Shown: positions 1-9,000 of the stretch, piece after piece | Position numbering within the stretch: position 1 is the first letter of the stretch | Layout of the letters: every line of letters begins with the position of its first letter | From: Escherichia coli 042 | Lineage (GTDB): Bacteria; Pseudomonadota; Gammaproteobacteria; Enterobacterales; Enterobacteriaceae | Assembly (NCBI RefSeq): GCF_000027125.1 | Contig: NC_017626.1 | Direction: 5' to 3' (one strand) | DNA length: 64,000 nucleotides | Made by a program: the position numbers

Positions 1-3000
1 GCCAGCGAAAGGGATAAACACCGCTGAGCGGCGACCCTGCAACTGTTCAGCAATTAGCGGCAGTGCATGTTCCAGCCAGGCTTTACCCGGCAGCGTCGAG
101 TTACTCAATAAAAGCAGTTCCATTACTTCTCCGGTTAGTAAGAAATCACGGAAGGCATGCTACCACTGCGAATTTAACCACTTACTGACATGGCTCACGA
201 TGTCACGTATTGCACCGGGCGCTGAGACTGATGACAAACACAGCATTGCCTGATGCGCTACGCTTACCTGGCCTACCAGATAACTGCAATATATTGAATT
301 TTCGAGATTATGTATGCCGAATAAGGCTTCATTCCGCATCCGGCATAAACAATGTGTACTTTGCCACCAATTTGAGCGCCCCTTAAGGCGCTGATGTTTT
401 TTATCCTTCTCGTGCACATTGGGCCGCTTCAGCAATCAGCCGCACATCCGGTCGCGAAGTTGCCGCGGCGACCAGCCAGCGACATGCAGAGTTAAGTAGC
501 GCGATTAATCATGGGAAATTGCTTCTGCATGGGCGAGCAGATATTGCTCCGCCTCACCGGACCAGATCCCCTGATGACGCGCCAGAATCGCCGCCAGTGC
601 TTGATCCTGAATCTGCGTGAGTGACGTCAGCGGCAGGTATTTCCCGGTATACACCAGCTTTTTGCCGCCGCCGACGGCAGGCAATTCAAGCGTGGTTTCG
701 CCCGCGGCATTCAGCCCAAGAATATGTGTTACCACTTTTGCGGCCTGCACTTTTTTCTCTTCAATCAATTTGACCGCTGCGCGCATGTCGTCGGTATTGC
801 CGCCTGACGTGCCCACGTAGTGGGTAAATGCATAATGCACATCGTAGAAATTAATTGGCGCGCTGAAATGTTTATCCTGCGGTCCGGCGAAGAAATTCAG
901 ACAACCATCTGTCGCCAGCAAGGAAGAGGCGAGAGTCACCAGTCCTTCATTAGGCACAAAGACGAAAATATCATCGAAGCCGTGACCGCCACTCAGTGCC
1001 ATTAACGTATCAAATGCTGCATCGGCGGCATTGAGATAATGAATCAGTGTTTGCGGTTCTGATGGATAGTGCTTGCGCGCATAACTCAATTTGTCGTTGT
1101 CGGTATCGGTAATGACGAGCAGCGACGGGTTAACGGGTCCATGCAGCGCATAATCAATCGCCAACAGTCCCATTGGTCCGGTGCCGCCGAGGATCAGCGT
1201 GCGCCCTTGCGGGCGAATCCCCATCGTGTGGTTATAACTACCTTCCTGAAGATGATAGTTGGCGTTGAACGCGCCAATCACGCAGGAAAGCGGTTCAACC
1301 AGCGAGCCTTCAAAATAGGTTTCGCCGTCGTATGCCAGCAGGCAATCTTGTTCCATAACCTCATTTGGGATAACCACATGTGTGGCTTCACCGCCCACCC
1401 ACGGGAAGGAGTAGCCGGGGCAGTCCGGGCGATCCGGCAATTGCAGGTTGGCCTGAATCACATAGCGCTGGCCCGGCTGAAATTTGTGCTGCCACTTTTT
1501 ACCCACGGCCAGAATATCGCCGCAAAACTCGTGGCCGATGATGATGGGGTTGGTCGCCACATCGTCGGGTACTTTTTTATGGTTTTCACCCAGGTTGGCC
1601 TCTTTCCAGGAAGAGAGGCACAGGCTGTCAGTGACCACCGTCGCGAGGATTTCATCCTCCTGCATTTCAGGAAGGTCAAAGGTTTCCAGGCGTAAATCAC
1701 GTTTACCATAAAGACGCAGAGCTGTTGTTTTCATAAACCACCTCATGTTGAGCGATGGCCCCGGCAGTCGTGCCGGGGCGAAGAATCAGGACAGGAAGCC
1801 CAGCGCATTGCCGATAATCCCTAAGCCAAACAGGGCGAAAATCAGCCATACCGGGTTAATTTTTTTGTTGAGCAGACGAACCATCAGTAGCGTCAGACCG
1901 AGCGCCAGCAAACCAGGGCAAAGTTGGTCGAGAATGTTCTGCACGGTCATGGTGACGGTGGAGCCATCGGCGGCATGCGTTTGTGAAACCACCAACGGTA
2001 CGTTGATTGACGTCCATTTGGTGACCAGCACGCCCATCACAAACAGTCCGAGAATCGACGCGCCTTCGGTGAGTTTTTGCAGCACATTCCCGCCCATATC
2101 GCTGACGATATTCACCCCTTTGCGAAAGCCGAGCTGTAGGCCATACCACTTCATCGCCAGACGCACCGCGTTGAAAATAAAGAAGAACAGCAGCGGGCCG
2201 AGAATGTTGCCCGAAAGTGCCAGAGATGCGCCGAGCGCGGCGGTAATCGGGCGCAGCGTTCCCCAGACCAGTGGATCGCCAACTCCTGCCAATGGTCCCA
2301 TCAGACCGACTTTGATGCCGTTAATGGTACCGTCATCAATTTCCGCGCCGTTGGCTCGTGCCTCTTCCATGGCGGCAGTGACGCCGATGACCGGGCCACA
2401 TACGGCTGGCGTGGTATTGAAGAACACCAGGTGTCGCCTGAGCGCCGCAACCTGATCCTCTTTTAATGGGTAAAGTCGTTTGATGGCGGGGATCATGTCG
2501 TAGCAAAAACCCAGCCCGTGAATACGTTCAAAGTTAAAGGACGCCTGTTGCAGGTTGGAGCGCAGAAACATGCTCACCAGATCGCTGCGTGTAATTTTTC
2601 TCTGTTCCATGATGGCTCCGTTAATCATCAAGTTGGTCAAGGGCGGTGATAGTGGTGGTCTGGGGATGTGGTTCAGCTTTACGCCACTGTGGATTTAACT
2701 GGATGTAGAGCAGGGCCATGATCACGCCGACGCCACCGAACGCCAGCAGACTGAGATCGAGGTAGCCACCTGCGAGGAAACCGAGGAAAAAGAAAGGCAT
2801 CAAATATTTCACGCCCATCATGCGAAGCACCATGGCGTAACCGACCACCACGATAAAACCGCCAGCAATCTGCAGTCCACGGGTCACAAATTCGGGAATG
2901 GCGTTTAACATATTGCTGACCATATCGGCGCTGACGAACAGCGAGACAATCAGTGCCGGAATAGCAACGCGCAGCGCCTGCACGCCAAGCGCGGAGACAT

Positions 3001-6000: not shown

Positions 6001-9000
6001 AACTTTTGCTTCAGTTGCTGCTCCAGCCAGAGATTTTCGTTGTAGTCATAGTTGATGGCGATGGTGACAATTCCCTGATCGCGGCCTCGTTTAAGCAAGC
6101 GGCTGATGGTGGTGCGGTAAATACCCAGTTCGCGCGCGATTTGCGCCTGCGTCATATCCTGTTCGTAATAGAGTTGGGCAATCTTCACAATCAAACGGAT
6201 ATCGTCACTGTTTTCCATTGCCGCCTCCTGGTTCTGCACATTTGTGCAAATACGCTTTCTCACCGCTTGATCTGATATAACCCCATCATGATGGCCTTTC
6301 AAAGCGATTTTTCACTCTTTGCATGGGGAGAAATAGCGCTTTCTCTTGCACATTTGTTTCTCTGCGTAGTAGTCATCAGCACAGGTGTGCAGCGATTCGT
6401 AATATGTTGATTATCCTTATTTTGCCAGGCAAATTTGCATCGTACTTCCGGAGACACTTTTGTGATAAAAGGCGTGGCAGATCACATTTAATTTCGACGT
6501 TGCCGCATAACCCTGTTTTTCCCCGCTAAGAGGTACGGTATATTCCGCGTTTTACAGGAGAATTTATGCTGCCCGACTCATCAGTCCGTTTAAATAAATA
6601 CATCAGCGAAAGCGGAATTTGCTCACGCCGCGAAGCGGATCGCTATATCGAGCAAGGCAATGTGTTCCTTAATGGCAAGCGAGCCACCATTGGCGATCAG
6701 GTGAAACCCGGCGACGTTGTGAAAGTAAACGGTCAGTTGATTGAGCCTCGGGAAGCCGAAGATTTGGTACTTATCGCCCTGAACAAGCCCGTCGGTATTG
6801 TCAGCACCACCGAAGATGGCGAGCGCGATAACATTGTCGATTTCGTTAACCACAGCAAACGCGTGTTCCCGATTGGCCGCCTGGATAAAGACTCCCAGGG
6901 GCTGATTTTCCTCACCAATCACGGCGATCTAGTGAATAAGATCCTCCGTGCGGGTAACGATCATGAGAAAGAGTATCTGGTGACGGTCGATAAACCGATT
7001 ACCGATGAATTTATTCGTGGTATGGGGGCGGGAGTGCCGATCCTCGGGACGGTGACTAAAAAGTGTAAAGTCAAAAAAGAAGCGCCGTTTGTCTTCCGCA
7101 TTACCCTGGTGCAGGGGCTGAACCGTCAGATCCGTCGCATGTGCGAGCACTTTGGTTACGAAGTGAAAAAGCTGGAACGTACGCGCATTATGAACGTCAG
7201 CTTAAGCGGCATTCCGCTAGGGGAGTGGCGCGATTTAACCGACGATGAGTTAATCGACCTCTTTAAGCTCATCGAAAATTCCTCTTCCGAGGCAAAACCT
7301 AAAGCGAAGGCCAAACCGAAAACTGTAGGCATCAAACGTCCAGTCGTTAAGATGGAAAAAACGGCGGAAAAAGGCGGTCGCCCGGCGTCCAACGGTAAGC
7401 GTTTTACCTCGCCGGGGCGAAAAAAGAAGGGGCGTTAATCAGCGCCTGCCGCGCGTCGACGTATTTGCTGACCAGCTAAATGACGCTTCAGGATCCGGTT
7501 TATAAGCCTGCTTTTTCTTCAATTGGCGGGCTTTTTTTGCTGCTGCTTCACGCTCAACCATCAGCTTATCGATGTACTCTTTTTTAATGCTGTTGGTTTC
7601 CGAATTAGTCAACACGCGACCATGCGCAATCCGCGCCCGATCCAGCAGTGTTTTAAGTTCACGCTGCTCGCGTTCAGTCATCTCTTTTTGGGTAATACGG
7701 GGGAGTGCCATGATGGTGCCCTCAGTGAGCCAGAGAGTTCAGTGTACGGGAATTCGTTTGCGAGCAGAACTGATAATATTCATTTGCCTTCTCTTAACTA
7801 TTTATCTCTTTCGATAATTAATTAGAGATGCAGAAAAAAATTAAAGGCAATTATTCTCCGATAAAGACGCTGGTTAACAGAGTACAGGCTCGTTTATTGA
7901 TGAGCATAGTGACAAGAAAATCAATACGGCCCGAAATATAGCTTCCAGGCCATACAGTATTTACTCAAACAAATTAAAATGCAGTTTTTGCACCACCTGC
8001 TCGGCATCTTCGCCGGGCACCAGGAAGCACAGGTTATGGCTGGATGCGCCGTAACAAATCATGCGAATGTTGAACGGTTCCAGTACGCCGAATACCTCTT
8101 TGCCAACGCCGCAGGCTTTTGACAGGTCATTGCCAATCAACGCGACCAGCGCCAGACCTTCCTCCACTTCTACCCGGCATAGTGCAGACAGCTCCATCAG
8201 CAGAGATTGCGTCAGCAAGGTATCGCCAGTGGAGGTTGAACCGGTGGTATCAAGGGTTAATGCCACGCTCACTTCTGACGTGGTGATTAAGTCTACCGAA
8301 ATATTATGCCGCGCGAGGATGCCGAAAACTTCCGCGAGGAAACCGCGAGAATGCAGCATATTCAGGCTGTGCAAAGTGAGCAGAGTCTGATTGCGACGAA
8401 GCGCCAGCGCGCGGAATAGCGGCGGATTTTCAGTTTTATTGCACACCAGCGTACCACCTGCGCGTGGGTCTTTGCTGGAGCCGACAAAGACCGGGATATC
8501 GCTACGTACTGCGGGTAGCAACGTTGCCGGATGCAGTACTTTTGCACCAAAAGTTGCCATCTCTGCCGCTTCGGCAAACGCGATTTCATCAATGCGTTTT
8601 GCTGCGGAAACTACGCGTGGATCGGTGGTGTAGATGCCCGGGACGTCGGTCCAGATATCAACACGAGATGCGTGTAAAGCCTCCGCCAGCAAGGCTGCCG
8701 TATAATCGCTGCCTCCACGGCCAAGCGTCGTTGTCCGACCTTTATTTTCGCTACCGATAAATCCCTGGGTGATCACTAAGCCTTCATTGAGGCGTGGGAG
8801 CAGCTGCAGCGCGGCCAGTTCCGCCAGCGCGGCTACATCTGGCTCTGCACGACCAAATCGGTCGTTGGTACGCATCACTTTACGTACATCAAACCACTGT
8901 GCCTGAACATCACGTTCGCGCAGGATCTCGACAAACAGCAGGGTCGACATCAGCTCGCCGTGGCTGACCAGTTCATCTGTCAGCGCCGGAGACGTTGCCA

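Follow-up and report, generated by a model that had tools for sequence, protein, structure and literature searches.

Is the L-sorbose operon between pepE and rluF of Escherichia coli 042 a module that this strain gained, or one that E. coli K-12 lost? The sor operon enables roughly half of E. coli strains to import and catabolize L-sorbose, a textbook-level strain-variable trait, and sorbose fermentation has served as a diagnostic marker for decades. Recent papers tie the operon to how fit and how virulent high-risk clones are. We analyzed a 64,000-nt stretch of the E. coli 042 chromosome (contig NC_017626.1; hereafter the window) and estimate a probability of about 90% that positions 505-6218 hold an intact chromosomal sorCDFBAME operon, that its site is ancestral, that the K-12 allele is a loss, and that a further gene, sdhL, has been destroyed. 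The operon is already well known, it is intact and ordinary in E. coli 042, and its presence there adds nothing new. The small evolutionary additions are that the trait appears to be ancestral and lost once, in an allele now in most of phylogroups A and B1, and that an eighth gene persists in decayed form in most E. coli.

Gene content and layout

Seven ORFs with intact frames were found at 505-6218, all co-oriented on the minus strand in the order sorC-D-F-B-A-M-E. These genes and their neighbors are as follows.

1-123, minus strand: 5' part of pepE (dipeptidase E), the downstream co-oriented neighbor, common to K-12
505-1734, minus strand: sorE, predicted L-sorbose-1-phosphate reductase, zinc-ADH/MDR fold, 409 aa
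1786-2610, minus strand: sorM, PTS EIID, 274 aa
2621-3418, minus strand: sorA, PTS EIIC, 265 aa
3484-3978, minus strand: sorB, PTS EIIB, 164 aa; 87% identity to K. pneumoniae IIB-Sor (PDB 1NRZ)
3978-4385, minus strand: sorF, PTS EIIA, 135 aa; its stop codon shares 1 nt with the sorB start
4395-5201, minus strand: sorD, predicted D-glucitol (sorbitol)-6-phosphate dehydrogenase, SDR family, 268 aa
5271-6218, minus strand: sorC, SorC-family regulator, 315 aa; 87% identity to K. pneumoniae SorC (PDB 2W48)
6566-7438, plus strand: rluF, divergent from sorC; the core promoter/leader runs to 6565

The seven gene lengths were equal to those of the RefSeq-annotated genes in a 98.6%-identical E. coli, a Shine-Dalgarno sequence precedes the ATG of each gene, and the NCBIfam matches fit the expected roles of the seven Sor proteins. 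SorD scored 501 bits against NF004817 (sorbitol-6-phosphate dehydrogenase). SorE carries the ADH_N and ADH_zinc_N folds, and no SorE-specific NCBIfam model matched it above the cut-off. The activities of SorE as L-sorbose-1-phosphate reductase and of SorD as glucitol-6-phosphate dehydrogenase are predictions from these folds and the family match. ORFs, sizes, and families all agree with the claim of an earlier note on this DNA that the region is a sorCDFBAME L-sorbose operon of seven co-oriented minus-strand genes. That note had also called the operon complete, which holds for the canonical seven genes and fails for the eighth, sdhL, present here only as a 112-nt remnant. As to its statement that several genes overlap or abut, sorF and sorB do share the one base at 3978 (TGATG), the only pair with a true overlap; gaps of 9-10 nt separate two pairs, and gaps of 51-69 nt separate three others. 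Variability within the operon is highest in sorF.

Assignment to L-sorbose

SorC was identical to K. pneumoniae SorC (2W48) at 274 of 315 residues, and SorB to K. pneumoniae IIB-Sor (1NRZ) at 139 of 160, with a score of 304 bits versus 171 bits for the IIB domain of ManX. The amino-acid identities of SorD, SorF, SorA, SorM, and SorE, which were compared with Klebsiella oxytoca-group loci only, were 74-96%. The gene order of the window equals the SorC to SorE order of K. pneumoniae tabulated in PMC2831201. In the same work, cloning of c4981-c4987 of E. coli CFT073 into DH5alpha gave growth on L-sorbose (PMC2831201), and the forward primer used for that operon matches window positions 475-504 exactly. 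Furthermore, sor knock-out and knock-in phenotypes and induction by sorbose have been shown in E. coli, where deletion of sorE abolished sorbose use and the seven sor genes were the most strongly sorbose-induced genes (PMC12817954).

The NCBIfam models matched by the four PTS subunits describe generic "mannose/fructose/sorbose" subfamilies, which, together with the missing SorE-specific match, leaves room for a reading in which the transporter and enzymes serve another sugar (mannose, fructoselysine, or N-acetylgalactosamine) and the sorbose label is annotation carry-over. We consider this reading extremely improbable in view of the 87% identity to K. pneumoniae Sor proteins with solved structures, the growth on L-sorbose conferred by the cloned orthologous operon whose primer site is exact in the window, and the sorE deletion and induction phenotypes. 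Moreover, the AgaF, AgaW, AgaE, and ManX models gave far lower scores than the Sor matches. The earlier note had named a closer match to another sugar PTS as the outcome that would overturn the assignment; the Sor proteins matched far better than ManX or Aga. The sorbose assignment of the window operon is sound. Growth on L-sorbose and induction by the window allele are predicted from the orthologous E. coli operon, and amino-acid differences, e.g., in SorF, which is 96% identical to tested alleles, could in principle impair function in 042.

The pathway steps are taken from studies of K. pneumoniae and E. coli, by way of later papers and general background. SorF (IIA), SorB (IIB), SorA (IIC), and SorM (IID) would form a mannose-family PTS permease that converts L-sorbose to L-sorbose-1-phosphate on uptake. 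SorE would reduce L-sorbose-1-phosphate to D-glucitol-6-phosphate, which SorD would oxidize to fructose-6-phosphate for entry into glycolysis. SorC, encoded by the first gene, would act as a repressor without sorbose and as an activator with it.

Boundaries and the K-12 junction

The claim that K-12 lacks the operon between pepE and rluF was borne out: the two genes are adjacent there and the sor genes are missing. Identity with K-12 stops at 204, and the left limit of the segment missing from K-12 lies at 205-219, weaker homology reaching about 219 when other sor-positive alleles are compared. K-12 homology restarts at 6531. The difference from K-12 spans about 205/219-6530, which replaces the limits of 246-6565 given earlier. 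At the K-12 junction, about 79-95 bp of unrelated filler stand in place of the entire segment. A search for the source of this filler in the window and all 85 fetched loci gave chance 9- to 14-mers only, so the loss would not have been a clean deletion.

Distribution and direction of the event

The segment was present in 2865 of 5426 complete E. coli genomes (about 53%), always on the chromosome, and the K-12 junction in 2557. None of the 2865 copies exceeded 98.7% DNA identity to the window allele. The DNA identity was 98.6% to E. coli proper and 91-93% to E. whittamii, Escherichia sp. MOD1, and the GTDB "E. coli" SCPM representative. Identical copies of the SorE protein occur very widely, with a 2.5% difference in the surrounding DNA.

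A presence/absence polymorphism of this kind (2865 genomes with the operon versus 2557 without) can be read as horizontal acquisition by the sor-positive lineage, with K-12 keeping the ancestral empty site, and the 79-95 bp that K-12 has and the sor-positive allele lacks could then be the original spacer. The distribution outside E. coli speaks against this reading. The rluF-sor-pepE synteny was found in more than 10 enterobacterial genera, and the same rluF-pepE site is occupied in Escherichia albertii, E. whittamii, Pseudocitrobacter, Citrobacter, Klebsiella, Raoultella, and Enterobacter. The nucleotide divergence of the individual sor genes tracks that of rluF, yjbD, and lysC, and the sorC-rluF spacer is alignable across genera as an orthologous sequence. 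Pseudocitrobacter offers a point on the side of insertion, its sor genes (86-94% identity) being somewhat closer to the window than its flanks (80-87%); some homologous exchange of sor genes between genera is possible.

REP elements at one edge of the segment could likewise be taken as a trace of insertion. The segment shows none of the other marks of a horizontally inserted island that were looked for: its GC content is 48-55%, like that of the flanks and with no shift; no boundary repeats or target duplication were found flanking it; and apart from the seven sor genes, every ORF of more than 100 aa in it lies within these genes or antisense to them, with no integrase, transposase, or other mobility gene. 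The sor-negative E. coli genomes listed have a single, nearly identical junction in common (the 12 full-length matches listed show 99.4-100% identity), and the operon occurs in >86% of the genomes of every phylogroup save A and B1 (PMC12817954). We regard acquisition by insertion as quite unlikely. Since the site is shared across genera, the divergence resembles that of the flanks, and mobility genes, repeats, and a GC shift are all lacking, K-12 probably shows a loss. Judged by sequence comparison, occupation of the rluF/pepE site by sor would accordingly be the ancestral state in Enterobacteriaceae, and we infer that K-12 shares a single loss allele with most of phylogroups A and B1. The description of the operon in the earlier note as an inserted accessory module probably has the direction wrong: the K-12 lineage lost the operon and 042 did not gain it.

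Remnant of sdhL and the 3' flank

The region between sorE and pepE contains the following features.

248-276, plus strand: REP element, short Z-type, GCCTGATGCGCTACGCTTACCTGGCCTAC, also in E. whittamii
312-344, minus strand: Y-type REP element, which forms an inverted BIME-like pair with the 248-276 element
375-392: GC-rich hairpin AGCGCC..GGCGCT, just past the sdhL stop codon
401-512, minus strand: remnant of sdhL (shikimate-dehydrogenase-like gene), 112 nt, with 701 nt deleted

The sdhL fragments were placed by tblastn and by pairwise alignment allowing one long gap. The 5' 58 nt of the gene (455-512) are joined directly to its 3' 54 nt (401-454); the ATG overlaps the sorE stop codon by 8 nt, and a TAA stands at codon 7. 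With 112 nt left, the window holds no SdhL frame of about 270 aa (NF009202/PRK12550), for which the full-length E. whittamii orthologue scored 462 bits (cut-off, 306). In relatives, sdhL follows sorE, and the Klebsiella-group loci fetched keep it at full or nearly full length. The majority E. coli allele has the same deletion as the window, and ST648-type strains (177 genomes) keep sdhL intact. The ancestral operon would have had sdhL as an eighth gene overlapping sorE by 8 nt, which the 701-nt deletion and the stop codon would have destroyed. A fuller proposal, that this eighth gene was translationally coupled to sorE through the conserved 8-nt overlap, had an unrecognised sorbose-linked role, and was dropped by most E. 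coli through a single 701-nt deletion, is tentative, and we lean somewhat against it.

Published work has handled sdhL as an ST648-specific extra and not as the ancestral state.

The REP elements that had been placed at one flank of the operon were found at 248-276 and 312-344. The search pattern was GCC(G/T)GATGCG...TTATC(A/C)GGCCTAC, with a variable gap, for imperfect palindromes of about 30-35 nt of the kind that sits in intergenic DNA, often as inverted pairs; both elements match it as a REP/BIME pair, and 14 further copies occur in the window. No Rfam RNA family was found in 1-7000 at the gathering or E<=1 threshold, the REP elements scoring below the naRNA4 threshold. It is uncertain whether the 375-392 hairpin terminates the sor transcript, because its T-run is on the plus strand only.

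Control region of sorC

Upstream of sorC, the following elements were found.

6235-6248: perfect palindrome TGCACAAATGTGCA, beginning 30 nt upstream of the sorC ATG
6266-6282, minus strand: invariant block GGTTATATCAGATCAAG, which holds a -10-like hexamer
6297-6302, minus strand: -35-like hexamer TTGAAA, 16-17 nt upstream of the -10-like hexamer
6345-6357: half-palindrome ACAAATGTGCA, related to TGCACAAATGTGCA
6378-6391: palindrome TGCACACCTGTGCT, related to TGCACAAATGTGCA

Conservation of the TGCACAAATGTGCA pattern extends across genera: of 33 sor loci, 32 had an exact copy at this position, and the 33rd had one mismatch. The palindrome at 6235-6248 is probably the proximal SorC operator, and the sites at 6345-6391 would be distal SorC sites. 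The minus-strand interval 6266-6304 is a putative sor promoter. A scan with the sigma-70 consensus did not flag this promoter and gave fewer sites than in shuffled controls, so cross-genus conservation is the one basis of the promoter call, as conservation is of the predicted operators. The TGCACA-NN-TGTGCA palindromes at 6235-6248 and 6378-6391, both conserved, are the sites by which SorC would probably act. As strongly conserved elements, the palindromes of the control region would be obvious targets for defining the SorC operators.

Comparison with known systems

The K. pneumoniae sorCDFBAME operon, reportedly described by Sprenger and Lengeler and by Wohrl et al. in 1990, matches the window in its seven genes and in their order and orientation. 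In the oxytoca group and K. indica, the sor genes lie beside rluF and yjbD, and in the oxytoca group also next to pepE. The DNA identity between Klebsiella sor genes and the window is about 78-84% (own comparison; PMC2831201), and the window has only a remnant of the sdhL gene that the Klebsiella-group loci retain. The sor genes of E. coli CFT073 (c4981-c4987) and of ST131 and ST648 strains (PMC2831201, PMC12817954) represent the operon of the window and have the same location.

The manXYZ and aga PTS of E. coli resemble sor in having a four-domain mannose-family EII (IIA, IIB, IIC, and IID). However, IIA and IIB are separate proteins in sor and fused in ManX, and the man and aga systems, unlike sor, have neither a linked reductase/dehydrogenase pair nor a SorC regulator. 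In regards to regulation, SorC has the same fold as DeoR and CggR of B. subtilis, which bind as tetramers to two half-operators containing short palindromes (PMC11229326), and the sor control region has comparable palindromes. The predicted SorC operator is TGCACA-NN-TGTGCA, whereas that of DeoR is TTGAA-N6-TTCAA. Unlike the repressors DeoR and CggR, SorC is reported to be an activator as well as a repressor.

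Organization of the sor operon

The ORF listing of window positions 1–9000 contained seven co-oriented minus-strand reading frames, as the earlier note had described, and two REP elements on one flank, which had likewise been predicted. The features are as follows.

123, minus strand: start of pepE
248–276, plus strand: REP element
312–344, minus strand: REP element
505–1734, minus strand: sorE, 409 aa
1786–2610, minus strand: sorM, 274 aa
2621–3418, minus strand: sorA, 265 aa
3484–3978, minus strand: sorB, 164 aa
3978–4385, minus strand: sorF, 135 aa
4395–5201, minus strand: sorD, 268 aa
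5271–6218, minus strand: sorC, 315 aa
6566, plus strand: start of rluF

Both REP elements fit a pattern that 14 further REPs in the window also match. The sor start codons are those chosen by RefSeq in the 98.6%-identical E. coli APEC O2-211, and a Shine-Dalgarno sequence was located 5′ of every one. The intergenic gaps from sorC to sorE were 69, 9, −1, 65, 10, and 51 nt. Several genes had been thought to overlap or abut; this applies to sorF and sorB, which form the sole true overlap (TGATG, sharing base 3978), and to two near-abutments, but the other three gaps are ordinary spacers.

Within the operon, sorF varied most. SorF showed 96% amino-acid identity to that of APEC O2-211, compared with 99–100% for the other Sor proteins, and sorF showed 92.4% DNA identity to that of E. 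coli ECA64. This variability agrees with the four sorF clusters described previously (PMC12817954).

The pepE–rluF locus in E. coli

In MG1655, pepE adjoins rluF with a spacer of 211 bp, which confirms that sor is absent from this site in K-12. Identity between the window and K-12 stopped at 204 and restarted at 6531, and the left homology reached about 213–219 when other sor+ alleles were compared. The limits of the segment, formerly placed at 246–6565, are thus about 205/219–6530. Between the homology limits, K-12 holds 79–95 bp of its own (positions 1725–1819 of L002, the K-12 pepE–rluF locus), a filler that matched neither the window nor any of the 85 fetched loci.

The whole sor segment was present in 2865 of 5426 complete E. 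coli genomes, always on the chromosome and nearly always as a single copy. Another 2557 genomes carried the K-12 junction (matches covering 80% or more of the query), and the 12 full-length examples listed were 99.4–100% identical. All but 4 of the 5426 genomes are covered by these two states. The locus therefore has essentially two alleles in E. coli, and the empty, K-12-type allele looks like the product of a single origin.

Probable loss rather than insertion

We scanned one genome per species with SorE and then searched for all flanking proteins by tblastn. sorCDFBAME directly adjoined rluF and yjbD, usually near pepE, in the following enterobacterial groups.

Escherichia albertii, E. whittamii, and Escherichia sp. 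MOD1
Pseudocitrobacter
At least seven Citrobacter species
Klebsiella grimontii, K. michiganensis, K. oxytoca, K. spallanzanii, and K. indica
Raoultella
Enterobacter spp.

The per-gene nucleotide identity to each outgroup was the same for the sor genes as for rluF, yjbD, and lysC: about 74–85% versus 81–82% for the flanking genes in Klebsiella, 77–86% versus 81–85% in Citrobacter, and 89–95% versus 84–92% in E. whittamii. The sorC–rluF spacer was alignable between genera. No GC shift was observed across the sor segment, no repeats were found at its boundaries, and the ORF listing contained no mobility genes within it. The operon has been reported in more than 86% of genomes of every phylogroup but A (9.6%) and B1 (12.1%) (PMC12817954). 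Owing to this same-site synteny, flank-like divergence, alignable spacer, phylogroup spread, and lack of compositional, repeat, or mobility signals, the claim that the operon was inserted between pepE and rluF is unsupported. The best reading is that sor is ancestral at this locus and was lost in a single allele, now the dominant one in phylogroups A and B1, including K-12. This reading is uncertain at two points, namely the filler without a source and the sor identity to Pseudocitrobacter, which was slightly raised and leaves room for some homologous exchange of sor.

In several Citrobacter and Klebsiella species (loci L009, L012, L021, L031, and L045), pepE was located 4–10 kb past sorE instead of about 1 kb, so that in genera other than Escherichia the sdhL–pepE gap is a site of variable insertions.

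An eighth gene, sdhL

In E. whittamii, a 270-aa ORF encoding a shikimate-5-dehydrogenase-like protein (NF009202, 462 bits) begins 8 nt ahead of the sorE stop codon (ATGATTAA). By tblastn, this gene, sdhL, was found directly 3′ of sorE, with the same 8-nt overlap of the sorE stop, in some 27 other sor loci of enterobacteria, at full or near-full length (broken in one MAG). In the window, tblastn and alignment revealed the following.

401–512, minus strand: sdhL remnant, whole
455–512, minus strand: first 58 nt, with codon 7 changed from CAA to TAA
401–454, minus strand: last 54 nt

The 701 nt between the two pieces are deleted. Among the 2865 complete E. coli genomes with sor, the gene was full in only 177, and the rest had the same two-piece remnant. 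In a previous study, sdhL was reported to be present, and induced by sorbose, in ST648 alone (PMC12817954). The outgroup loci, which carry sdhL after sorE, show the full gene to be ancestral rather than an ST-specific addition. The operon, which had been called complete, thus has all seven sor genes, but its ancestral eighth gene is only a remnant here. A GC-rich hairpin (375–392) follows the sdhL stop codon; with its T-run on the opposite strand, it is an uncertain candidate for the terminator of the sor transcript.

The sorC–rluF control region

Cross-genus alignment of the otherwise variable sorC–rluF spacer revealed islands of invariance and other sites.

6235–6248: perfect palindrome TGCACAAATGTGCA, starting 30–34 nt upstream of the sorC ATG
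6266–6282: invariant block GGTTATATCAGATCAAG, with TTGAAA 16–17 nt upstream
6345–6357: half-site upstream of sorC
6378–6391: second palindrome copy TGCACACCTGTGCT, its position (−173/−177) kept in 21 of 33 loci

An exact TGCACA-NN-TGTGCA was present at the proximal position in 32 of 33 sor loci from more than 10 genera (30 with TGCACAAATGTGCA and 2 with TGCACATATGTGCA; the remaining locus had one mismatch). Allowing at most one mismatch, this pattern occurred twice in the 64-kb window, both times upstream of sorC. The GGTTATATCAGATCAAG block and TTGAAA likely constitute the predicted sor promoter. Relatives in the SorC family act as tetramers on pairs of half-operators that are palindromic (PMC11229326). 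With this precedent, and from their conservation, the two palindromes and the half-site are probably SorC operators. The proximal site would be placed for repression by SorC, and the distal sites (6345–6357 and 6378–6391) for activation. SorC is reported to activate in the presence of sorbose and to repress in its absence (PMC12817954).

The spacer also contains, at 6453–6492, an invariant AATGTGATC...CTTT block and a ATCACAAAAGTGTC block. The former, about 85–90 nt upstream of the rluF ATG, is similar to the left half of a CRP site (AAATGTGATCT). K-12 lacks the 6453–6492 sequence, and the DNA upstream of rluF therefore differs between sor+ and sor− strains.

Other features of the window

Relative to K-12, the window lacks 1.8 kb between psiE and malG (16611–16615) that includes xylE (D-xylose:H+ symporter); xylE is likewise unannotated there in the close relative ECA64. 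Positions 30000–40000 were 100% identical to ECA64, BEC1-S17-ESBL-09, and one more complete genome (NZ_OZ392456.1). Fewer than 10 sites differed from ECA64 over 22–43 kb, versus 1–2% over 1–22 kb, which indicates mosaic ancestry of 1–22000 relative to 22000–43000. The best identity over 1–9000 was at most 98.7% among the 5426 complete E. coli genomes, yet a SorE protein of exactly this sequence occurs very commonly in public assemblies. The Rfam matches elsewhere are all expected for this E. coli region.

9402–9598: lysine riboswitch upstream of lysC
11493–11641: STnc430
51943–52083: sraL
59318–59667: four clustered naRNA4/BIME units (eight alternating REPs)

Identity of the Sor proteins and comparison with known systems

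NCBIfam models identified SorF as a mannose/fructose/sorbose PTS IIA (TIGR00824, above cut-off), SorB as IIB (TIGR00854, "pts-sorbose"), SorA as IIC (TIGR00822, "EII-Sor"), SorM as IID (TIGR00828), SorD as an SDR-family sorbitol-6-phosphate dehydrogenase (NF004817, 501 bits against a cut-off of 304), and SorC as a SorC/DeoR-type sugar-binding regulator. SorE has a zinc-alcohol-dehydrogenase fold. In the Klebsiella and E. coli system, PTS uptake converts L-sorbose to L-sorbose-1-phosphate, which SorE reduces to D-glucitol-6-phosphate and SorD in turn oxidizes to fructose-6-phosphate.

The CFT073 genes c4981–c4987, which gave DH5alpha growth on L-sorbose when cloned, have been equated with SorE, M, A, B, F, D, and C (Table 3 of PMC2831201), and the forward cloning primer of that study corresponds to window positions 475–504 with zero mismatches. 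In ST131 and ST648, sorbose induces the seven sor genes more strongly than any other genes, deletion of sorE abolishes sorbose use, and an ST10 strain grows on sorbose after sor knock-in (PMC12817954). Other papers tie the operon to virulence and fitness. The sor system in the window is real, correctly named, thoroughly known, and ordinary; the only points that are mildly new are that sdhL is ancestral and that the palindromes are conserved.

The window SorC was identical to K. pneumoniae SorC (2W48) at 274 of 315 residues (87%), and SorB to K. pneumoniae IIB-Sor (1NRZ) at 139 of 160 (87%, 304 bits), whereas the ManX IIB domain gave only 171 bits against SorB. The comparison thus gave no better match to another sugar PTS, the outcome that would have refuted the assignment to the sorbose PTS.
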